Positions 24,071 to 35,642 of a DNA stretch of 64,000 nucleotides are shown here, in pieces. The stretch is taken from NCBI GenBank assembly GCA_963730935.1, contig CAVSTP010000002.1, positions 320,001 through 384,000 on the forward strand, given 5' to 3'. A program made the translations under genes and the position numbers. Below the pieces are notes generated by a model. It did not search any database and had not been told where the DNA came from. It worked only from the letters and a program-made list of their open reading frames with translations. The stretch is from an uncultured Nitrospiraceae bacterium. Its GTDB lineage: Bacteria; Nitrospirota; Nitrospiria; Nitrospirales; Nitrospiraceae. Position 1 is the first letter of the stretch; each line of letters starts with the position of its first letter.

Positions 24071-24261
24071 AGGCCAGCGCACCGTTACTTTCTATAGGGT
24101 TGTGAAGGCACGTTGGGTCTAGAACCTACCGTTCCTACCGCAGACAAAAGAAGGATGAGTTTCTGAAGGACCATATTCGGCATCGGCCTGACTATCTGAA
24201 AGGATGGCGGGCATTGATGAGGGATTAGTAGTCGAGTGCGGGGATGAATTAGCGGACTAAC

Positions 24262-24739: not shown

Positions 24740-25975
24740 CTACCGGATCTTCACAAGATTGGATTTGGCCGACAGAGAGGCAAGATAGTCGCAAGTGCGC
24801 TTCATGGCCTGGCGGAGATCCTCTTCGGAGATGATGTTGTATCGGGAGAAGATTGAGGGGGTGCGATGGCCGGAAATCTGTCGAGCCACGTCAGGGTTGA
24901 CGCCTGCCCGTACCATATTACGGACAGCAGATCGTCGGCAGTCATGGGGGATGGGATACACTTCCACGGTGTGTCCGGTCACTGGGTGACGTTCGACCTT
25001 CACGAGACCGGCCGCACGACACGCACGCTTCCAGACTTTTCTGAACGTCCCCATCTGCTCCCCTCTCCGATGGAAGATATATTGGCAATCCATCTGCCTC
25101 GCGGCCAGCCGTCGCTCAATAACCTCTCGCAAGTCATTCTCCAAGGGGATCGCTCTCCCCTTCCGGTTCTTTGAATCCCTGGCGTGAAGGCGAATGGTCC
25201 AGGTTTCTCGATCGAAGTCAGCCCAGGTCAGCGCCTTCGTTTCGCCCGTTCGCATGCCGGTGAAAAAGCACCAGGCCATGTAGTCTTGGAGGTCACTGTC
25301 GGGCTTTCCACGAACGGTGAGCCGTGACAGAATTGCTTCGAAGTCTGCCCTATCCAAAAAACCCTGCCTAGCATTATCTTCCGGCAAGCTCTTGATGTAA
25401 GGCACATAGGTCAGGACCTGCTGTTCCTTGGCAAGTGTAAAGGCTCGCTGGAGGCCTTCCAGTTCCCGGTTGATCGTGGCATTCGCGGCCTGTTGCTCTT
25501 GCCGTCGCTCCATATAAGCGTTGATCCGATGTGGCGTCACCTCGAGCACTCGATCGTTCCCGAAGAACGCGCGAATGTGTTTCAAATGCTGTTGCAGGCG
25601 GGAGAGTGATGCCAGACCCCGCAATTCATAATGACGTTCCAGTTCCTCCAGCAGACATAGCACGGTGATCCGTTCTTGCTGTGGCCCGCGAAATGGTTGG
25701 ACGCCAAGCCGATGAGCTGCCAGCTCGTCTTGACGCCGTTTCAGCAGTTTTCTTGCCTCCAGTTCGGTAGCTCCCGCTGACTCACGCACTTCAACGCTTC
25801 GCCCATCCCGCTTCACATAGTAGGCAATCCAATACCGTTGCTTGCGCTGGTAGATCCGTCCTGCTCCATGTGGACGCTTCTTTCGTGGTCGTGATTCACT
25901 GGTGACCAGAGAATCGACTAACGCCTGGTGGGATGGCCAATGCTCATTCACGGTGATTGATTGAGTTCCCCTCAT
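24740..25975 (-). CDS. tyrosine recombinase / phage integrase
   Basis: GMRTGE (R), SKN (K), PHDCRR (HxxR), SGH, RYN (Y) all present; SAM-like ATINREL. Confidence 0.95.
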   Translation of the reverse strand: MRGTQSITVNEHWPSHQALVDSLVTSESRPRKKRPHGAGRIYQRKQRYWIAYYVKRDGRSVEVRESAGATELEARKLLKRRQDELAAHRLGVQPFRGPQQERITVLCLLEELERHYELRGLASLSRLQQHLKHIRAFFGNDRVLEVTPHRINAYMERRQEQQAANATINRELEGLQRAFTLAKEQQVLTYVPYIKSLPEDNARQGFLDRADFEAILSRLTVRGKPDSDLQDYMAWCFFTGMRTGETKALTWADFDRETWTIRLHARDSKNRKGRAIPLENDLREVIERRLAARQMDCQYIFHRRGEQMGTFRKVWKRACRAAGLVKVERHPVTGHTVEVYPIPHDCRRSAVRNMVRAGVNPDVARQISGHRTPSIFSRYNIISEEDLRQAMKRTCDYLASLSAKSNLVKIR

Positions 25976-26027
25976 GCATGTGTGATAGTTAACGATATCA
26001 TGCTATCTTAACTATACTCAAGAGGGA

Positions 26028-26345
26028 CTAGTGGCCTTGGTGCCTTCTGATGTACAGCTCAAGCCCATTGTTCGAAAACCTGACATACCTGCCCTGGCGG
26101 ATCATGAAGGGATAGGACCGTGCGTTCCGATAGATAAATCCCTTCGTCACATTAAGCCGAATAGCAACTTCGTCAGCGGTCAGCAGGCGGTCAGGCTGCG
26201 CTTGTACGTTTTTCCCTGTTCCTATGGTCATCTTGAGCCATAACGAGGCTTTCAGCTGCTCCAGGTGTCCCATGAGGAGGGGGCACTGATCAGGGGTGGC
26301 TCTTTCAACGGCTTCCGCTAGGACGCTCCACGTGTCTAGACTCAT
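26028..26345 (-). CDS. excisionase-like HTH_17 protein
   Basis: DRLLTADEVAIRLNVTKGFIYRN...GRYVRFS; directly upstream of int. Confidence 0.8.
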   Translation of the reverse strand: MSLDTWSVLAEAVERATPDQCPLLMGHLEQLKASLWLKMTIGTGKNVQAQPDRLLTADEVAIRLNVTKGFIYRNARSYPFMIRQGRYVRFSNNGLELYIRRHQGH

Positions 26346-26378
26346 CTCTCTTCGTTCTGGCTTCAGCGAGCCAGCCTT

Positions 26379-26621
26379 TCAACGCTCCACAACCACCACC
26401 ACGCGGTTATCTTCGTTATTTTCACGCATCTCAGTGGGTATCAGCCTGGCCGCAATGCGGTAGAACTCCGTTGGATTCTCTTTGGCCCATTTTGAAAAGG
26501 CTTCATGCCCACCGATGTCATCGTAGACGTGCTGAACAGCCTCACGGAAAGCAGTGGTCAGCCGGTTTGGCACGCCGGGCAGTCTTCCGCCTGTTTTTGG
26601 TTTGCCTGGTAGGAATGGCAT
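26379..26621 (-). CDS. terminase-small-subunit-like protein
   Basis: F..G.PKTGGR.PG.PN..T...REA...GG....W A.ENP..FY...RLIP pattern typical of phage TerS-like proteins; RBS AAGGAG. Confidence 0.6.
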   Translation of the reverse strand: MPFLPGKPKTGGRLPGVPNRLTTAFREAVQHVYDDIGGHEAFSKWAKENPTEFYRIAARLIPTEMRENNEDNRVVVVVER

Positions 26622-26650
26622 TCTGTTTCGCTCCTTTTTAGAAATTAGAC

Positions 26651-27058
26651 TTAGTTACCGAGCCCATCCAGGCCATGTTCCCTGACTGTCCACGCGGCCA
26701 GGAGCCGGCCCTTTTCGTTGGTTTGACCCACCGCACGAATGCTTGAAAGGGAAAGGTGTGCTCCATCGGTCAGGACAAGACGCCAGCCTGACCCGTGCCA
26801 CTGGCATTCCTTCACGGTGCCATGCTCCCGTTCGTCTGCGCCGCCCCGAAGTTTGTCGGTCCTGTCGCGATAGACCACAAACCAGCCAGACTCGAGCGGG
26901 GGAATGCGAGCAGGTTCCGAGGGTGGCTGGTCCTCTTCTGAATCCGCTGGAGCATCTGTCGGAACCAGCGGAAGGGGTGCCTTACAGACTAGACAGGCCG
27001 CCCAGTGGACGTTGACCACGGCGTGACACTGAAGGCATCGGCTGACCGTCAGGCTCAT
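26651..27058 (-). CDS. hypothetical protein with N-terminal Zn-ribbon (CxxC-x9-CxxC)
   Basis: likely start MSLTVSRCLQC at 27058; the upstream extension in the ORF track overlaps the iteron array. Confidence 0.65.
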   Translation of the reverse strand: MSLTVSRCLQCHAVVNVHWAACLVCKAPLPLVPTDAPADSEEDQPPSEPARIPPLESGWFVVYRDRTDKLRGGADEREHGTVKECQWHGSGWRLVLTDGAHLSLSSIRAVGQTNEKGRLLAAWTVREHGLDGLGN

Positions 27059-27086
27059 ACAGTCCGCCTTTTTCGCATAACCTGAC

Positions 27087-27272
27087 AGGAAACATTGAGG
27101 CAACTTCCATGTTGCCTGCTCTGGAAAGAGTTTCCAGGTAGGCAACTCGTACACCCCGCATCTGGAGCAGCGTTCCGCCGAAAGTTTCCTAAATTCCCCC
27201 CGCGATTTCGCAGGAGCAAAATAGGCAACATTTTCACGCGGGAGGCAACTTTTGAGGCAACCATTAGGCAAC
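27087..27272. repeat. iteron array, putative replication origin
   Basis: AGGCAAC at 27098, 27140, 27223, 27243, 27255 and 27266; inverted at 27111; AGGAAAC variants at 27087 and (inverted) 27184. Confidence 0.75.
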
Positions 27273-28310
27273 CCCTTCCAGTGCCGCCTTGAGTTTCTTG
27301 ATGATTCTTGAGGCGTAGCCGGGGGAGATATCGAGCTCTATGGCGAGGTCGGACGGCCTAGTCACGCCGTTCTCAAACAGCTCTCTCGCCAGTTCAAACT
27401 TCGAAACTTCCACCGGCTGGTATTGCCAGATGAGTCCGTGACCTTGCTTCACCAAGCGCACATCGAGTGGGGCCACATCATCGCCCGTCACGCCCCGGCA
27501 TTTCGTGAAGTGCATTTCAAAGTGGCATCCGTCGCGGGCATCCCTCAAAGGCGGTTCCTTGAGTTGCACCACGGTGTCTAGCGCATCCTCCCGGCCGCTA
27601 GTGCCACGTTGCTGCCCCTTTTTACCGGAGTGGTGGACTAAGACAGTGGAGAGCCCCCGATGACGCAGGCGGATCAGCCACGCGTTGATCGGCTCCCAAT
27701 CCTGCTTGCTGTCTTCATTGATTCCGCTAAAAAGACAGGAAATATTGTCGAGGATCAGGACGCGGATGTCTGGGCGGGCCTCGAGGATTTTGACAATCTG
27801 TTGTTGCATGCCGTGCGACGTGAGGATGAGATCCTTCCCACCGCATCGCTGATACACCAGTTGACTGGTAAGGAATTCAAACGGGGCGGCTGGCGGCGTA
27901 TCCATGAGCGCCGTGGCGCGTTCTCGGAGTTCGTCCAGCTGCATCTCGCCATCGCAGTACAGCACTCCGACAGGCGCTTGGACCTTCCACTTCAGAAGAT
28001 CCTTGCCGTTGGTCAGGGAGACGCCTAAGGCCAGTTGGAGAAAGGTCTTGCCAATCCCCCGTGGGCCAAAGACCATCACGTTGCCGCCTTCAGGAAGCCA
28101 TGGGAGATGACGGGCTCGCTCTGGAATCTGCAGCGCCATCAGATCGGTATAGTTCACCAGCGCCCGTAAGAGATCGGGGGGCGTCCGATCCTCACTCAAT
28201 CTGTTCGCCGTGCCGTCCCCGGCCAGCATCTGTTCTATGCCTGTGGAAAGCCGCTCCTGCGCTTCATCAAAGGCAGTCGCGGCTTGGGTAAATGCAGCCT
28301 CACTAGTCAT
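27264..28310 (-). CDS. AAA_25 / RepA-like (SF4) helicase with C-terminal HTH
   Basis: Walker A GPRGIGKT, YCDGEM, Walker B LILDN, VHHSGK...RGTS; ATGA overlap with the upstream gene. Confidence 0.85.
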   Translation of the reverse strand: MTSEAAFTQAATAFDEAQERLSTGIEQMLAGDGTANRLSEDRTPPDLLRALVNYTDLMALQIPERARHLPWLPEGGNVMVFGPRGIGKTFLQLALGVSLTNGKDLLKWKVQAPVGVLYCDGEMQLDELRERATALMDTPPAAPFEFLTSQLVYQRCGGKDLILTSHGMQQQIVKILEARPDIRVLILDNISCLFSGINEDSKQDWEPINAWLIRLRHRGLSTVLVHHSGKKGQQRGTSGREDALDTVVQLKEPPLRDARDGCHFEMHFTKCRGVTGDDVAPLDVRLVKQGHGLIWQYQPVEVSKFELARELFENGVTRPSDLAIELDISPGYASRIIKKLKAALEGVA

Positions 28311-28759
28311 ATCGCCTCGCTTTCCAGGAGCTGATAGGCGGCCCCCAAACGCTCTAGGGCGGTGTTGAGTTGTTCGTGAGACCACTTGTCAATGCAGATG
28401 CCGCACGCGGAGTGAATGAATGCTTCTGCTTCTCGCAGAGCATCCATGCGGAGACCATTTGCTGTGTAGGTGGCCTGCTCCTTTGTCTTAGCTTGCTGGC
28501 GTGCTTCCATCGCCTGACGGCGTTCGTTAGGGTTGTTTCCCGTCGTGTCAAAGAACAGATCCTTGACCGAGAGACCCAACGCCCTGGTAATCTCTTCCAC
28601 CGTGCAACCGGCCCAGCACTTCAGCAGCAGGCCCCGGTTGCCTTCAGCTATCGTGAGTGATGGTGAGTTGTCTTGATGTGCGGGGCAGCGGCTAATCCAT
28701 TTGTTCGAGCCGCTAGAGCGTACCCCATCGAGCAGCGGCAGCAGTTCTGTGGCCATCAT
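28307..28759 (-). CDS. CHC2 primase-type zinc-finger protein (no TOPRIM domain)
   Basis: RCPAHQDNSPSL...LLKCWAGC. Confidence 0.85.
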   Translation of the reverse strand: MMATELLPLLDGVRSSGSNKWISRCPAHQDNSPSLTIAEGNRGLLLKCWAGCTVEEITRALGLSVKDLFFDTTGNNPNERRQAMEARQQAKTKEQATYTANGLRMDALREAEAFIHSACGICIDKWSHEQLNTALERLGAAYQLLESEAI

Positions 28760-28872
28760 GCCACGCTCACAGTCTGGCGAACGTCTAGTGCATCATGGAG
28801 TTGACCGTGTGCTCGGTGGCAGTCCCGGAATCGCTCTTGTAACGCTAACCGGTAATCAGGTAGGCTTTGCAT
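28756..28872 (-). CDS. 38-aa ORF translationally coupled to the Zn-finger gene
   Basis: MQSLPDYRLAL...VSVA*; ATGA overlap at 28756-28759. Confidence 0.3.
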   Translation of the reverse strand: MQSLPDYRLALQERFRDCHRAHGQLHDALDVRQTVSVA

Positions 28873-28897
28873 CGTTCACCCTATACAGTTTGTGTTG

Positions 28898-28933
28898 AGC
28901 CGCCGTGGAGGTCGCACTCCCGGCGGCTTTTTT
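28898..28933 (+). terminator. intrinsic-terminator-like hairpin oriented antisense to the replication operon
   Basis: AGCCGCCG-TGGAG...CTCC-CGGCGGCT followed by TTTTT. Confidence 0.55.
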
Positions 28934-28945
28934 GTTCATCGGGAT

Positions 28946-29173
28946 TCACTTCACCACCTTGTTCTGCTCCGCTCGGGTTTGTACTTGGCGTCGTAACGCC
29001 GCCTTCGCTTCTTCAATATCCACTCGCACTCCGTACCCTTTATTGCCAGCGGCATAGGCCGGTACTCTCCCGTTCTTGCAGAGCCGATAGAGGCTCGAAG
29101 GAGCCATGCCTAATTGGCGTGCCGCCTGTTTGACACTGACCAATGCACCGCTTGTTTGGTTGTCGTCGCTCAT
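28946..29173 (-). CDS. AlpA/excisionase-like HTH protein
   Basis: LVSVKQAARQLGMAPSSLYRLCKNGRVPA; RBS AAGGAG before ATG 29173. Confidence 0.8.
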   Translation of the reverse strand: MSDDNQTSGALVSVKQAARQLGMAPSSLYRLCKNGRVPAYAAGNKGYGVRVDIEEAKAALRRQVQTRAEQNKVVK

Positions 29174-29420
29174 GTATCTCCTTCCATGTTGCTCAGGTTG
29201 TTCCCCTATGGAACAACAATGCCTATTTATCCCTATCGTATGAAAAAGAGCGAAGAGAGCAGGCATGAGATGTCTCAGAGGCGGTTCTAAGACCTTGGAT
29301 TTAAATGTTAATTCGTGAACTGGAGACCGAGAAGCTTAAGGCAAGTGTAGATAGGGACGGAAAAGGCCTCTTTATATCCCCATTGAAAACTATGAGAATT
29401 TCCGCCGGTGGGCTAAGGCA

Positions 29421-30170
29421 TTATGTGTGAGAGTTCGCGGAGGGAGGTTGGAGAGAATCGAAAAATTTTTTGAATGCACGAAGGGTGGCCTCGTCCGGCT
29501 GCTGTGAGGGATTAGCTAGGAAGCACTGAAGGACGTTTATATACTTATTTATCAAACCACTGAAATCTTCGAGGTCCGTCTCTCCCGGTGTGACTGATGC
29601 TGCGATTTCATCAATATGTTTCAGGTGCTTTTCCCACTTCCGGTATTGTCTGAGCATGGTATCTGCATTTGGAGGCTTGATGCCGTAACAATTAGTGGTC
29701 CATAAACTTGAACTAGTATCGCCATCTTTACGGAACAGCGCTTTCACTTGTTTGGCGACTTGTCTGCAAGCCTCCGTCTTTGACAGTCCCCCAATCACGA
29801 GCTTGTGGACTGCCTGGCATAAAACCTCCAGCATGTTCTTCCGCACTCTTTGAGGGACCTCGGCGGCTTTCGTCTTCCCTGTCCCTTCCCCCTTGAAGCC
29901 TAAGGCAATATCTAGCGACTTAATGTCCGGCGATGTGATGCGGTCGTTTGTCGCCGCCTTAAATAATTTGACGGCCCACATGGGGGCGGCAATGCCGAGA
30001 AGTCCCGCGCTTACCATTGCTGACGTTGCCAAAAAGGGGGTCTTCGGCTCGGTGTAATGGCATTCGTACAAGCTCAGGATTGCCTCTCGGCGCCAAGGTT
30101 CCGCTTCCCCCTCAAGCTGCTCATCGAGAAACGCTAGAAAAGGATCTGTTGTCTGTGGATTTGTGGACAT
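29421..30170 (-). CDS. hypothetical protein (possible element regulator)
   Basis: 249 aa, SD AGGAGG, helical C-terminal part (GLSKTEACRQVA). Confidence 0.7.
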   Translation of the reverse strand: MSTNPQTTDPFLAFLDEQLEGEAEPWRREAILSLYECHYTEPKTPFLATSAMVSAGLLGIAAPMWAVKLFKAATNDRITSPDIKSLDIALGFKGEGTGKTKAAEVPQRVRKNMLEVLCQAVHKLVIGGLSKTEACRQVAKQVKALFRKDGDTSSSLWTTNCYGIKPPNADTMLRQYRKWEKHLKHIDEIAASVTPGETDLEDFSGLINKYINVLQCFLANPSQQPDEATLRAFKKFFDSLQPPSANSHT

Positions 30171-30199
30171 GTCCCCTCCTGTCGGGTCCTGGTGAGGAG

Positions 30200-30261
30200 G
30201 GGCAGCGCCCGCGCCAGGAAACGCGAGCCGGCCAGGGGATCAAGCCCGACCGTTGCTGCCC
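30200..30261 (-). ncRNA. three-way-junction RNA, c4/CI-like antisense or leader switch candidate
   Basis: P1 GGGCAGC/GCTGCCC, P2 CGGTCGGG/CCTGGCCG, P3 GCTCGCG/CGCGGGC; segments complementary to sequence beside the downstream SD. Confidence 0.6.
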
Positions 30262-30362
30262 GAGGAGAATCATTTCACGCCGCGCACGTCAAGTGCGTGG
30301 CTAATCATGTCTACCTCAAGCGTTGTATAATCGCAACGCAAGGAACGCTCCAGAAGGAACAG

Positions 30363-30596
30363 ATGGGGAAAGGCGACAAAGGGAAACAGAAGTTCATGAT
30401 GGGCTTCCGGCCAGTCGTGCGAGCCCGTGAGGGCCGCATGCTTGGCATCCGTCAGCCACTAGACGGACCCATCTTCGAAACGATGAGAGATGCTGAGAAC
30501 TGGTGCATCCATGCCATGATCAGTCACTTCGATAGACGGCTTGGCATGTCGGATGCGACGATTGAACCGTTCAAAGGGATGGTGCTTTGTTTCTGA
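30363..30596 (+). CDS. small hypothetical protein (MGKGDKG family), intact copy
   Basis: RBS AAGGA before ATG 30363; homologous segments at 32369 and 34223. Confidence 0.7.
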   Translation: MGKGDKGKQKFMMGFRPVVRAREGRMLGIRQPLDGPIFETMRDAENWCIHAMISHFDRRLGMSDATIEPFKGMVLCF

Positions 30597-31066
30597 AGGA
30601 CGTCTAAGCACTGCAGCCGTTTTCCACGTGCTTATTTACCATTCCGAAGCCTGACTAGAGGTTCGGATTCTCATTCTGAATCGTTATGCATCAATTGCGA
30701 CCCTGCTTTTTCGGACTGGTTCTCATCACAATAGCCCGATGTTCCGGAGGGGAGGAGGGCAATCAAGGAAATCCTGGAGCGACGGTGTCATTGATGTGGG
30801 ATCCAGTTATTGATGCATTGCCGATCAGCTATACGGTGCATTATGGTAAGGAATCGCCTCGCAATGTCGGATCATGCAAGTACGAGTATTCTTTGAGCAC
30901 GTCCGAACCCTTTGCCACCATCACCGATCTTGAATTTGATGCGATCTACTACTTTGCCGTCAGTGCCTTCAACGGACTTCGCGGCCCTTGTTCCAACGAG
31001 CTAGTAAAAGTGACCGGAAAACCAGGACAGGACACACCACAAAGCCAATAACAACACTGTTCGGCT
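30394..31066 (+). repeat. 673-bp direct repeat, copy 1 (copy 2 at 34223-34895)
   Basis: offset 3829 bp; two substitutions seen near the 3' end. Confidence 0.95.
30686..31051 (+). CDS. fibronectin type III domain (lipo)protein, copy 1
   Basis: VSLMWDP...YTVHYG...ITDL....YYFAVSAFNG...SNE. Confidence 0.8.
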   Translation: MHQLRPCFFGLVLITIARCSGGEEGNQGNPGATVSLMWDPVIDALPISYTVHYGKESPRNVGSCKYEYSLSTSEPFATITDLEFDAIYYFAVSAFNGLRGPCSNELVKVTGKPGQDTPQSQ

Positions 31067-32021: not shown

Positions 32022-32368
32022 GATGTCCTCCAGTGGGAATGACTTTCATGAGCGGACCTTGGATTGGCTGCAAAAGCCAAGAGGCGCCTCTATAGCATTA
32101 ACAGAGCTTGGAAGGCTAGGATTCTTTATGGTGGAATAATTACGTGTATTTTTGGCAGTAGAGTCTTATTTGCCAGTTTCCTTTTGTTGAATCGAAGCTA
32201 TGATCGAAGTTATGCTTGATAGGCTGCTGCAGACAAGGATTCTCATCACTTTAACGGCTCGCCTTGATGCGTTGATCGCGGATCAAGGGTGGCTGTTGGA
32301 AGTCATCCGTAATAAACAGCCTGAGGCAGTTCGGATGGGGGAAGCACCTCGGCTAAGGAGAGAGACTG

Positions 32369-32524
32369 ATGGGGAAAGGCGATAAAGGCACACAAACCTT
32401 CATGGTTGGCTATCGCCCTTCCGTGTATGCCCGCGAAGGCCGCATGCTGGGGATCAGGCAACCCTTGGATGGACCAATCTTTGACACAGAACGAGATGCC
32501 GAGCACAATCGACCATCCCTCTGA
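32369..32524 (+). pseudogene. diverged, 3'-truncated MGKGDKG-family copy
   Basis: MGKGDKGTQTFMVGYRPSVYAREGRMLGIRQPLDGPIFDTERDAE, then homology ends; RBS AAGGAG. Confidence 0.75.
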
Positions 32525-34222: not shown

Positions 34223-34895
34223 TCATGATGGGCTTCCGGCCAGTCGTGCGAGCCCGTGAGGGCCGCATGCTTGGCATCCGTCAGCCACTAGACGGACCCA
34301 TCTTCGAAACGATGAGAGATGCTGAGAACTGGTGCATCCATGCCATGATCAGTCACTTCGATAGACGGCTTGGCATGTCGGATGCGACGATTGAACCGTT
34401 CAAAGGGATGGTGCTTTGTTTCTGAAGGACGTCTAAGCACTGCAGCCGTTTTCCACGTGCTTATTTACCATTCCGAAGCCTGACTAGAGGTTCGGATTCT
34501 CATTCTGAATCGTTATGCATCAATTGCGACCCTGCTTTTTCGGACTGGTTCTCATCACAATAGCCCGATGTTCCGGAGGGGAGGAGGGCAATCAAGGAAA
34601 TCCTGGAGCGACGGTGTCATTGATGTGGGATCCAGTTATTGATGCATTGCCGATCAGCTATACGGTGCATTATGGTAAGGAATCGCCTCGCAATGTCGGA
34701 TCATGCAAGTACGAGTATTCTTTGAGCACGTCCGAACCCTTTGCCACCATCACCGATCTTGAATTTGATGCGATCTACTACTTTGCCGTCAGTGCCTTCA
34801 ACGGACTTCGCGGCCCTTGTTCCAACGAGCTAGTAAAAGTGACCGGAAAACCGGGACAGAACACACCACAAAGCCAATAACAACACTGTTCGGCT
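34223..34895 (+). repeat. 673-bp direct repeat, copy 2
   Basis: see copy 1. Confidence 0.95.
34515..34880 (+). CDS. fibronectin type III domain (lipo)protein, copy 2
   Basis: identical to copy 1 except one D->N. Confidence 0.8.
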   Translation: MHQLRPCFFGLVLITIARCSGGEEGNQGNPGATVSLMWDPVIDALPISYTVHYGKESPRNVGSCKYEYSLSTSEPFATITDLEFDAIYYFAVSAFNGLRGPCSNELVKVTGKPGQNTPQSQ

Positions 34896-35565: not shown

Positions 35566-35642
35566 TGGTGCGCCCGGCAGGAATTGAACCTGCGACCTGC
35601 GGGTTCGAAGCCCGACGCTCTATCCAACTGAGCTACGGGCGC
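35566..35642 (-). tRNA. tRNA-Arg (anticodon TCG)
   Basis: GCGCCCG TAGCTCAGTTGGATAGAGC...CT-TCG-AA...GGTTCAATTCC...CGGGCGC A CCA. Confidence 0.95.

Follow-up and report, generated by a model that had tools for sequence, protein, structure and literature searches.

The operon and its leader

The window, by which we mean the whole 64,000-nt stretch of Nitrospiraceae DNA analysed here, carries on its minus strand an operon that starts with a gene of no family and ends with a tyrosine integrase. The genes behind the first one span 24740–29266 and were assigned by Pfam and PHROGs scans.

29421–30170 (−), first gene, 249 aa, no family; its ATG is at 30170–30168, 2 nt past the Shine-Dalgarno block
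28946–29266 (−), HTH_17 protein
28307–28759 (−), primase Zn-ribbon-like protein
27264–28385 (−), AAA_25 helicase-like protein
26651–27271 (−), protein without assignment
26028–26345 (−), HTH_17/excisionase-like protein
24740–25975 (−), tyrosine integrase

The first gene is preceded by a folded RNA on the minus strand, 30261–30168. Read from the sequence, its helices are as the earlier note described them. Three stems, P1, P2 and P3, are followed by an anti-Shine-Dalgarno (anti-SD) stretch that is perfectly complementary to the Shine-Dalgarno (SD) sequence of the first gene and overlaps the 3′ end of P1. The 14-nt loop between anti-SD and SD contains both CCAGGA and CCCGAC, at the positions claimed. 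The helix of anti-SD and SD is called P4 here, and the loops of P2 and P3 are called L2 and L3.

30261–30255 (−), 5′ strand of P1, GGGCAGC, pairing with GCTGCCC at 30206–30200
30254–30253 (−), J1/2, two unpaired A (AA)
30229–30252 (−), P2 hairpin, with the apical loop CTTGATCC at 30244–30237
30252–30245 and 30236–30229 (−), P2 stem, CGGTCGGG with CCTGGCCG, 8 bp, two of them G·U
30244–30237 (−), L2, the apical loop of P2, CUUGAUCC, with the palindromic core GAUC
30207–30228 (−), P3 hairpin, with the loop TTTCCTGG at 30221–30214
30228–30222 and 30213–30207 (−), P3 stem, GCTCGCG with CGCGGGC, 7 bp, one of them G·U
30221–30214 (−), L3, the loop of P3, UUUCCUGG
30206–30200 (−), 3′ strand of P1, GCUGCCC, whose last 3 nt can alternatively lengthen the anti-SD helix
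30202–30195 (−), anti-SD, CCCCTCCT, complementary to AGGAGGGG at 30180–30173, with a 3-nt overlap with P1
30195–30199 (−), CUCCU of the anti-SD, the 5′ strand of P4
30192–30187 (−), CCAGGA, the pseudoknot site in the 14-nt loop, complementary to UCCUGG of L3
30186–30181 (−), CCCGAC, conserved linker in the 14-nt loop, for which a partner was not found
30173–30180 (−), SD, AGGAGGGG, the 3′ strand of P4

The minimum-free-energy fold of the window RNA recovers P1, P2 and P3. Its energy is only moderately unusual by itself (z = −2.76, equalled by 4 of 200 shuffles), and the comparative data are decisive for the reality of the fold.

Little can be said of the first gene from its product. The AF2 model is all-helical with a pLDDT of 66, and Foldseek finds no match for it in the PDB at E ≤ 0.001. 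Protein-pattern scans of genome contigs and of metagenome contigs gave no relatives, and a word-index search gave 6, on short contigs. One relative with 38% identity, found among 200 genomes of the family, was the starting point of the comparison. The first genes behind other copies of the motif are mostly unrelated to each other and belong to no Pfam family.

The remainder of the operon is more regular. The first gene usually leads an HTH protein, a replication module, an excisionase and an integrase. In the window and 17 extended loci, a replication-type protein lies downstream on the same strand in 14 of 18 (Toprim+DUF3987, DnaB, AAA_25, D5_N, DUF3631, IstB or DUF3854), and a tyrosine integrase in 12 of 18. 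Upstream, a same-strand gene with a DNA-binding HTH domain is present in 4 of the 17 extended loci (HTH-plus-peptidase M78, LuxR-type and NikA-like). A consensus scan of the window upstream of the RNA reveals no clear sigma-70-type promoter; only L023, L049 and L181 have promoter-like hexamers, which end a few nt ahead of P1. The conserved fold described below and this gene context bear out the earlier reading of an RNA with several stems that heads the first operon of a mobile element.

Conservation of the fold and of the L3 pairing

Covariance models derived from the window RNA were used to search related genomes, viral contigs and metagenome contigs. They found 36 full copies, spread over related genomes and one viral contig, and 46 further distinct copies in metagenome contigs. 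All genome matches are confined to one bacterial order, which is probably Nitrospirota.

P1, P2 and P3 show strong covariation. In an alignment of 38 rows, 92.1% of cells are paired, against 72.3% in shuffles, none of 500 of which equals the observed value; control helices slid along the alignment have 42–59% of cells paired. Changes on both sides occur in 25 of 27 pairs, counted on alignments that had been fitted to the structure of the model. RNAalifold predicts P1–P3 unaided on the metagenome set. P1 has both-sided changes in 6 of 7 pairs (93% of cells paired), P2 in 7 of 8 and P3 in all 7 (96% of cells paired). Thus the flagged stretch is a genuine conserved RNA and not a product of chance, and the structural conservation in relatives that had been asked for is present.

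The SD also lies in a conserved helix with the anti-SD, as had been claimed. P4 has 5 pairs with 86% of cells paired, with changes from C-G to U·G and some both-sided changes. Its covariation is weaker because the SD is also constrained by the ribosome, and some of it may be alignment noise. The anti-SD CUCCU is retained within a non-coding linker. In most copies the motif ends with AGGAGG-N-ATG or GTG and an ORF follows; ATG stands at the end of the model in 36 of the 46 metagenome copies.

Several positions outside the standard pairs are conserved as well. J1/2 is AA in 30 of the 36 genome-set copies (AAA, GAA, CA or TA in the others) and in 46 of 46 metagenome copies. Among the 37 rows that have letters at the pair closing P3 at the junction, this pair is G·U in 29, G-C in 6 and U·G in 2; the window has G-C. 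P1 starts with GG in most copies. Across P1–P3, 95 cells are G·U and 19 are A·C, which assigns the fold to the same strand as the downstream ORF.

The pairing of L3 was examined across both sets. Pairs were counted by script; a MAFFT alignment of the 3′ half gave an inconsistent register for the site. The consensus is UCCUGR for L3 and YCAGGA for the site, with 5–7 bp between them, and the site lies 6–7 nt upstream of the SD, adjoining the SD and not on it. At least 5 contiguous bp form in 29 of 36 copies, and none of 1000 trials with permuted tails equalled the observed value. The terminal pair in the 36 copies is G-C in 20, A-U in 11, G·U in 3 and A·C in 2, and in the 46 metagenome copies G-C in 39, A-U in 4, G·U in 3 and A·C in none. 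Hence a compensatory change from G-C to A-U is seen in 11/36 and 4/46 copies, and this variable pair is mismatched in only 2 of 82. The penultimate pair is G-C in 34 and C-G in 2 of the 36, the two reversals being in L182 and L184, and L181 has G-C in place of U-A. Judged from these sequences, UCCUGG:CCAGGA is a genuine pseudoknot with compensatory changes.

The match had been described as a bipartite antisense one. The arm formed by the P3 loop stands, with compensatory changes in the genome and the metagenome sets. The other arm, CCCGAC with GUCGGG of the P2 5′ strand, falls away as a chance match: only 2 of 36 copies, that of the window and that of its nearest relative, have the full 6-nt complementarity, matches elsewhere span 2–4 nt, and there is no covariation. 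The geometry of the remaining pairing may be no less suited to an intramolecular pseudoknot than to antisense action in trans.

Known families do not account for the motif. Rfam 15 cmscan places no family on it, at the gathering score in the window, at E ≤ 10 over 29900–30700, or at E ≤ 1 in 15 other members. The check for membership of c4 and related families thus came out negative, with no c4 score in the window at E ≤ 10 or in the 15 members at E ≤ 1. A Flavi_ISFV_xrRNA candidate (14.5 bits against a gathering score of 50, E = 2.8) is absent in the 15 relatives and was rejected. The motif int-alpA is one of the Rfam motifs associated with prophages and islands. These resemble the leader in being non-coding structures beside integrase and AlpA-type genes, but none matches it in the window (E ≤ 10) or in the 15 relatives (E ≤ 1). 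By blastn the leader has no match in a phage collection and one match at chance level (E = 0.3) in a plasmid collection. A pattern search of IMG/VR with CACCAGGACCCNNCAGGAGG gave 0 matches, and a literature search, including one on nitrospira, RNA motif and integrase, found the motif described nowhere. The leader belongs to an RNA family that was previously uncatalogued and undescribed.

The palindromic loop of P2

A palindrome of 4 nt or more is present in L2 of 34 of the 36 genome-set and 45 of the 46 metagenome copies (79/82); shuffled loops give means of 11.8/36 and 18.1/46. The palindrome is 6 nt long in 17/36 and 35/46 copies. About ten kinds of core occur (GAUC, UGAUCA, UCAUGA, UAGCUA, UAAUUA, UUAUAA, UCGCGA, GGAUCC, CGCG and AGCU), each set off from the P2 stem by 1–2 unpaired bases. 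A second copy of the core in cis, within ±400 nt, is absent in most copies of the motif. Pairing of L2 with the 3′ end of 16S rRNA was also considered and rejected, as it fits the GAUC type only and not CAUG, AGCU, AAUU, UAUA or CGCG.

The palindromes suggest RNA–RNA kissing between two copies of the leader. Kissing is weak on the computed energies. By nearest-neighbour rules the common hexamers reach about −5 kcal/mol as self-duplexes, A/U-only hexamers −0.4 to −0.6, and bare tetramers, including GAUC of the window, −1.2 to −2.5. Copies that reside together show no clear avoidance of a shared core: of 6 genomes or contigs with more than one copy, 4 have differing cores, which is roughly the chance level.

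Palindromic loops of this type are known in RNA viruses. In the sections of PMC4066764, PMC4588261 and PMC3575852 that deal with them, the retroviral dimerisation initiation site and the loop of the SARS-CoV frameshift pseudoknot carry 6 self-complementary nt in an apical loop of about 8–9 nt, and they vary between lineages yet stay palindromic; the SARS-CoV loop is part of a three-stem pseudoknot that tunes translation. L2 likewise keeps a self-complementary apical core through sequence change, as is characteristic of dimerisation-type loops. In contrast to the viral cases, L2 belongs to an mRNA leader of a bacterial DNA element, for which a role in genome packaging is unimaginable, its cores are mostly weaker and richer in A/U, and the dimer is only predicted.

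A candidate translational gate and its alternatives

We lean, with a confidence slightly above even, towards a cis-acting leader of about 95 nt, a three-way junction with a pseudoknot, that acts as a gate on translation of the early operon of the element. It stands at the head of the genes for regulation, replication, excision and integration in small integrative elements. P1, P2 and P3 form the junction, with P3 about as long as P1, and L3 pairs with YCAGGA inside the loop of the fourth helix, where CUCCU is paired to the SD AGGAG. This compact fold would close the ribosome-binding site of the first gene, which would remain at a low level until some trigger opened the fold. If the downstream genes depend on the first one, by coupling or polarity, the entire early operon would be kept low. 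As far as sequence goes, a pseudoknot that opens the SD would fit as well as one that closes it.

Small islands with an integrase and replication genes are common, and their silencing is mostly unexplained outside a few model satellites. Here one RNA module is kept across elements that differ in first genes, regulators and replication proteins, and therefore appears to be the best-conserved part of the switch. Its covariance model provides a handle for finding such elements in nitrifier-type genomes and metagenomes, and P4, the pseudoknot and the palindromic loop are amenable to mutational tests.

L2 may add a second layer to this gate. It is directed away from the junction and has a self-complementary core of 4–6 nt that varies between elements, and the most economical view is that it would pair with L2 of a second RNA copy. 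Kissing would make the gate depend on RNA concentration or on the type of element. A tentative proposal, to which we give distinctly less weight than to the gate, is that L2 is a self-recognition site. Leaders of the same type would pair loop-to-loop through the 6-nt palindrome, so that the leader would act as sensor and target at once. Through dimerisation the level of the element's own transcript or copies would be gauged, or a like element noticed, and the pseudoknotted SD gate would be switched. The ten or so palindromes would then be specificity or incompatibility types. If so, a mobile element of bacterial DNA would possess a system akin to dimerisation initiation. Natural RNA homodimers are reportedly rare, as stated in part of PMC7357161, and kissing through L2 would make the leader a rare natural bacterial homodimer with a regulatory role.

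The candidate c4/CI-like switch of the earlier note survives in part: the closing stem with two hairpins is present and covaries, while a c4 score in Rfam and a target for the second loop are lacking. The P4 CI RNA is similar to c4. In the portion of PMC5320573 that describes c4 of P1/P7, a closing stem and two hairpins, whose loops pair with their own transcript near the ribosome-binding site, decide at the head of an operon whether it is active. The closing stem and hairpins of the leader also fit that description in a length of about 60–77 nt, a position ahead of the operon controlled, and a temperate or integrative element as carrier (PMC5320573). The pairing of L3 beside the SD may correspond to the c4 loop that pairs at the ribosome-binding site, but a cis pseudoknot explains it equally well. 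Applied here, a 62-nt junction would be excised from the leader, for instance through RNase P cleavage at the base of P1, and would accumulate. Its L3 would pair in trans with YCAGGA or with CAGGAG of the SD in its own or incoming related transcripts and shut the early operon. The GG at the start of P1 would suit such an RNA, and UUCCUG of L3 is indeed complementary to CAGGAG; with the SD admitted as a target, this duplex ranked first in 11 of 31 copies. ORFs of only 3–51 aa follow the motif in 7/36 copies; some copies thus appear to persist next to decayed first genes, as a trans-acting gene might. Nevertheless, we consider an immunity RNA unlikely. Neither c4 nor any other Rfam family matches, and only one loop has a target. 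That target lies inside the loop of the anti-SD:SD helix, unlike in c4, which makes a cis pseudoknot likely, and the fact that P1 and P3 are equally long and the linker of 6–13 nt also suit an intramolecular pseudoknot. The loop and its site are near-invariant between elements and hence not a specificity determinant as in c4; co-resident elements would cross-react, and element-specific immunity would not result. The other loop is palindromic. The leader resembles c4 and CI in architecture and is not a member of the c4 family.

A comparable pseudoknot activates translation in the IncI1/IncB plasmids, according to the account of repZ/repA in PMC8053102, where a hairpin loop pairs just 5′ of a sequestered SD in a replication-related operon. 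In that system the SD helix is opened by termination on a leader peptide, and an antisense Inc RNA is directed against the hairpin loop. By analogy, translation of an upstream frame would remodel the leader, and the L3:YCAGGA pseudoknot would open the SD rather than close it. The pairing of L3 just 5′ of the SD has the geometry of repZ (PMC8053102), and here too an upstream frame often ends nearby. In 7 of the 17 extended loci a same-strand ORF of at least 100 aa terminates 6–23 nt ahead of the motif; in the viral contig L090 the distance from such an upstream ORF is 16 nt, and the window has a frame of 12 codons, with GAGG as its SD, that stops 8 nt short of P1. Yet these frames end before the entire motif and not at the SD helix as in repZ/repA. 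The stop precedes the SD by about 75–80 nt, so that a ribosome terminating there could unfold P1 but would not reach P4. Several loci have a host gene of the opposite strand as their upstream neighbour, and stops shortly before intergenic motifs are frequent by chance. The hairpin, unlike that of repZ/repA, belongs to a three-way junction, and no antisense partner was seen in a consensus promoter scan. We regard this coupling as quite improbable.

Binding of a small molecule, or of a host or helper-phage protein, to the junction or the loops could also open the SD, and the conserved positions without a partner (AA of J1/2, the G·U that closes P3, and ACC-CGAC of the linker) are what a riboswitch or a protein operator might display. 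We hold this to be highly unlikely, in that no Rfam riboswitch class matches, two unpaired junction bases are too few for a typical ligand pocket, and the downstream genes are unrelated mobile-element genes and not a metabolic regulon. The two CAGGA boxes resemble the GGA sites of CsrA, but a search of the genome that holds the window, which is 99.9% complete, did not find CsrA (PF02599).

A structure that acts as DNA, with the repeats and palindrome serving for protein binding or methylation, as a single-strand origin or as an att structure, would be most surprising, for although the L2 cores are classic 4–6 bp DNA palindromes and the motif lies near the element end in several loci (tmRNA/tRNA fragments are 160–300 nt away in L053, L059 and L009), the excess of G·U over A·C places the fold on the sense strand of the ORF only, the stems make imperfect DNA palindromes, unpaired bases separate the core from the stem, and the motif is locked to an SD and a start codon. 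ARAGORN and Rfam do not recognise the motif as a tRNA- or tmRNA-like gene; the only tRNA of the window is a tRNA-Arg at 35566–35642.

The folded leader and its relatives

The leader RNA of the window lies on the minus strand and consists of a three-way junction of the helices P1, P2 and P3, followed by a tail with the anti-Shine-Dalgarno (anti-SD) sequence, the SD and the ATG.

Parts of the motif in the window
30261-30255, minus: P1 5' strand GGGCAGC, with AA next
30252-30229, minus: P2, CGGTCGGG / CTTGATCC / CCTGGCCG
30228-30207, minus: P3, GCTCGCG / TTTCCTGG / CGCGGGC
30206-30200, minus: P1 3' strand GCTGCCC
30199-30168, minus: tail CTCCT-CA-CCAGGA-CCCGAC-AGGAGGGG-AC-ATG

The complementarities described in the earlier note, which had proposed a c4/CI-like RNA switch with two loop-target matches, are all present in the window sequence. 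ViennaRNA recovers P1-P3 from this sequence, with a modest single-sequence statistic (z = -2.76; equally good folds in 4/200 shuffles). A 12-codon frame on the minus strand (30270-30308; ATG 30308-30306, TGA 30272-30270), with GAGG 5 nt 5' of its ATG, stops 8 nt 5' of P1; it could encode a leader peptide or be due to chance.

The first gene after the motif is rare: 200 family genomes contained a single relative, at 38% identity, and short metagenome contigs six more. L003, the leader of the single genomic relative, forms this three-way junction from other stem sequences, and the covariance models R1, R2 and R3 were built starting from it. At the family level, R2 gave 19 matches at E<=2e-4 in 18/151 genomes and reached 24/151 genomes at E<=1; 9/39 genera had a match. 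At the order level it found the motif in 19/151 genomes including the window's own (families f1 14/62, f2 4/62, f3 0/21, f4 0/5). Outside f1, the motif occurred in none of 97 genomes at the class level (R2) and none of 132 at the phylum level (R3). In IMG/VR a loose pattern produced at least 119 raw matches, with one true motif (L090, 74.6 bits) among 80 loci examined. A tighter pattern on metagenome contigs produced at least 120, and 50 of the 80 loci examined held 51 true matches, 46 of them distinct. The genome set (n = 36) and the metagenome set (n = 46) are not fully independent, for at least one metagenome contig (L192) agrees in length and motif with a genome contig (L031) and is probably the same record. 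The nearest Atlas cluster of the window's shikimate kinase hints, as a lead only, that the organism is probably one of the Nitrospirota.

In the 38-row alignment, standard pairs fill 92.1% of helix cells versus 72.3% in shuffles (0/500 as high), and 25/27 helix pairs change on both sides (an earlier count used 22 rows), in alignments that were fitted to the covariance model. Sliding the partners by 1-3 columns as a control lowers pairing to 42-59%. RNAalifold predicts P1, P2 and P3 unaided from the metagenome alignment, with compensatory change in 12/19 pairs. P1-P3 hold 95 G.U cells versus 19 A.C cells, and this excess indicates that the fold belongs to the ORF-carrying strand. Judged by these comparisons of sequences, the P1-P3 helices are real. 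The AA between P1 and P2 and the equal length of P1 and P3 (7 bp) are conserved, and the junction-closing pair of P3 is G.U in 29/37 rows with letters there. The fold is established together with its link to the start codon; the covariance model ends in AGGAGG-N-ATG, and the ORF begins there in most copies.

A second copy in the window's own genome, L183 (C2:317799-317899, 2.2 kb before the window; 50 bits with R3), is partly decayed: it has CCAUGA at the pseudoknot site and lacks an SD, and the ORF behind it is just 39 codons long. Its P2 loop is UUAGCUA, and about 470 nt further downstream there is a fragment that resembles a tRNA. The metagenome contig L210 carries two copies (467-556 and 962-1057, about 400 nt apart) that differ in the P2-loop palindrome, UCGCGA and UCAUGA; the upstream one has no SD tail.

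Contacts of the apical loops

The match claimed for the P3 loop proved to be a genuine pseudoknot, in which L3 (UCCUGR), the apical loop of P3, pairs with YCAGGA of the tail. It shows compensatory changes, and when tails were swapped among sequences the observed mean pairing was reached in 0/1000 trials. At least five contiguous pairs form in 29/36 genome copies and 43/46 metagenome copies, and in the copy L181 a pair further in has changed from U-A to G-C. L3 is also complementary to the SD's own CAGGAG; the covarying L3 position fits the upstream site only.

Pseudoknot pairs; most of L3, though not its partner, was predetermined by the pattern used to collect the metagenome set
Variable terminal pair, genome set (n = 36): G-C 20, A-U 11, G.U 3, A.C 2
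Variable terminal pair, metagenome set (n = 46): G-C 39, A-U 4, G.U 3, A.C 0
Next pair, genome set (n = 36): G-C 34, C-G 2
Next pair, metagenome set (n = 46): G-C 46

The other proposed match, CCCGAC with the 5' strand of P2, did not hold. It extends to 6 nt in only 2/36 copies, the window and its closest relative, and P2 varies freely in the others while CCCGAC stays constant. This complementarity is treated as chance.

Unexpectedly, L2, the apical loop of P2, is palindromic in nearly all copies. Switching between the kinds would require paired changes that preserve self-complementarity, in effect a covariation of the loop with itself. In general the core has no second copy in cis, so the natural partner would be the same loop on a second molecule. 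The calculated loop duplexes are of modest stability: the common hexamers reach about -5 kcal/mol, those of A/U only stay near 0, and the GAUC of the window has -1.8. Co-resident copies have different cores in 4/6 cases, about the chance rate.

P2-loop palindromes; the counts overstate independence, as the sequences are mutually related
At least 4 nt, genome set: 34/36 (shuffled loops mean 11.8, max 22)
At least 4 nt, metagenome set: 45/46 (mean 18.1, max 32)
6 nt, genome set: 17/36 (mean 2.1, max 9)
6 nt, metagenome set: 35/46 (mean 3.9, max 11)
Kinds (genome + metagenome): GAUC 15 + 8; UGAUCA 6 + 13; UCAUGA 6 + 11; UAGCUA 3 + 4; UAAUUA 0 + 4; UUAUAA 1 + 2; UCGCGA 0 + 1; GGAUCC 1 + 0; CGCG 1 + 1; AGCU 1 + 1

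A proposed cis-acting gate and its alternatives

The best-supported reading of the motif is a cis-acting gate. The SD would be held by CUCCU in a helix, P4, whose loop would be tied to L3 through the pseudoknot, and the three-way junction would brace the whole. P1 and P3, being of equal length and side by side, would place L3 at the tail's exit from P1, as the geometry suggests. That the motif represses, that a trigger opens it and that L2 has a role is what we infer.

With Rfam 15 at gathering score, the whole window gave a tRNA at 35569-35642 as its sole match and none on the motif; ARAGORN found only tRNA-Arg(TCG) at 35566-35642. Within 29900-30700 at E<=10, the motif reached only 14.5 bits to insect flavivirus xrRNA (gathering 50, E = 2.8). 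No Rfam family matched it in 15 relatives, and the match to c4 or related families sought after the earlier note was found neither there nor in the window. The CI RNA of phage P4 is similar to c4. A processed RNA of this kind acting in trans is the foremost alternative to the gate; compared with c4 as described in PMC5320573, the architecture is the same, but the motif fails the c4 family model, is without the second target and has an invariant loop-target pair.

Second stands a pseudoknot like that of IncI1/IncB, which activates translation following upstream translation (for IncI1, PMC8053102). A same-strand ORF of at least 100 aa ends 6-23 nt before the motif at 7/17 loci, including resolvases, an HTH-peptidase M78 protein and unknowns; at other loci a host gene of opposite orientation precedes the motif. 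An operator for a ligand or protein ranks third, and CsrA was not found in the window's own genome. A DNA-level site comes last, as the strand-specific G.U pairs speak against it.

A search of the literature for the motif found no description. The motif represents a new RNA family, although its general kind, a structured leader with a regulatory role in a mobile element, is known. Two of its traits are unusual: the pseudoknot with the loop of the helix that contains the SD, and the diversified palindromic apical loop. The name 'int-alpA' belongs to a motif tied to prophages and islands.

The elements carrying the motif

The element in the window is a small island, about 6 kb long, of the integrative and self-replicating type, and the motif heads its operon.

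Genes behind the motif in the window (Pfam and PHROGs scans)
29421-30170, minus: first ORF, 249 aa, no Pfam/PHROG family
28946-29266, minus: HTH_17 protein
28307-28759, minus: primase Zn-ribbon-like protein
27264-28385, minus: AAA_25 helicase-like protein
26651-27271, minus: unknown protein
26028-26345, minus: HTH_17/excisionase-like protein
24740-25975, minus: tyrosine integrase

Seventeen loci were extended to about 12 kb and considered together with the window. Downstream on the same strand, 14/18 encode a replication-type protein, with at least seven different families among them, and 12/18 a tyrosine integrase, with HTH_17 or HTH_3 proteins between. The upstream neighbourhood varies. The first ORFs are mostly without mutual relatedness or Pfam families, and in 7/36 copies the ORF has only 3-51 codons and looks decayed. 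From these comparisons, no other part of these mosaic elements is as well conserved as the RNA. Many first ORFs of the relatives open with Met-Pro and a basic stretch (MPRK, MPKR and similar), and a subset (L014, L016, L057, L090) has PYPY..IP and F(F/I)RIEALLRS in common; thus some 'unrelated' first genes may be fast-evolving relatives.

Pieces of tmRNA or tRNA lie 160-300 nt from the motif at L053, L059 and L009, which places it near the element's end there. At L034, L040 and L090 the motif is preceded on the same strand, at a distance of 16-110 nt, by the end of a tyrosine integrase gene. In L034 and L040 another integrase follows downstream, whereas L090 has two integrase genes in tandem on the upstream side. 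Such a pattern would be expected from tandem insertions at a single site. Short direct repeats, candidate operators, iterons or promoter elements, occur 30-110 nt upstream of the motif at L016, L053, L057, L051 and L056 (for example AACCGTGAC-AAA-TTCGG twice and ACTTGACA twice).

In the window, a 13-nt exact direct repeat, GTTTCTGAAGGAC, at 24159-24171 and 30589-30601 flanks the integrase operon and the motif; the expected number of matches of this kind between the two regions compared is about 0.03. An element of about 6.4 kb may have this repeat as its att core. The repeat shares bases with the stop codon of a small ORF (30398-30596), and the boundary is ambiguous because the adjoining inner stretch recurs unchanged in the paralogous copy at 34223. 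This copy belongs to a 673-bp direct duplication of 99.7% identity (30394-31066 and 34223-34895) that starts some 130 nt before the motif, on its upstream side. Both copies contain the small ORF and a 121-aa fn3-like ORF (30686-31051 and 34515-34880), and a third, partial and diverged copy (about 73%) lies at 32365-32506. Other tandem duplications in the window are 17202-17553/17568-17919 (86%) and 50833-51059/51094-51320 (70%).
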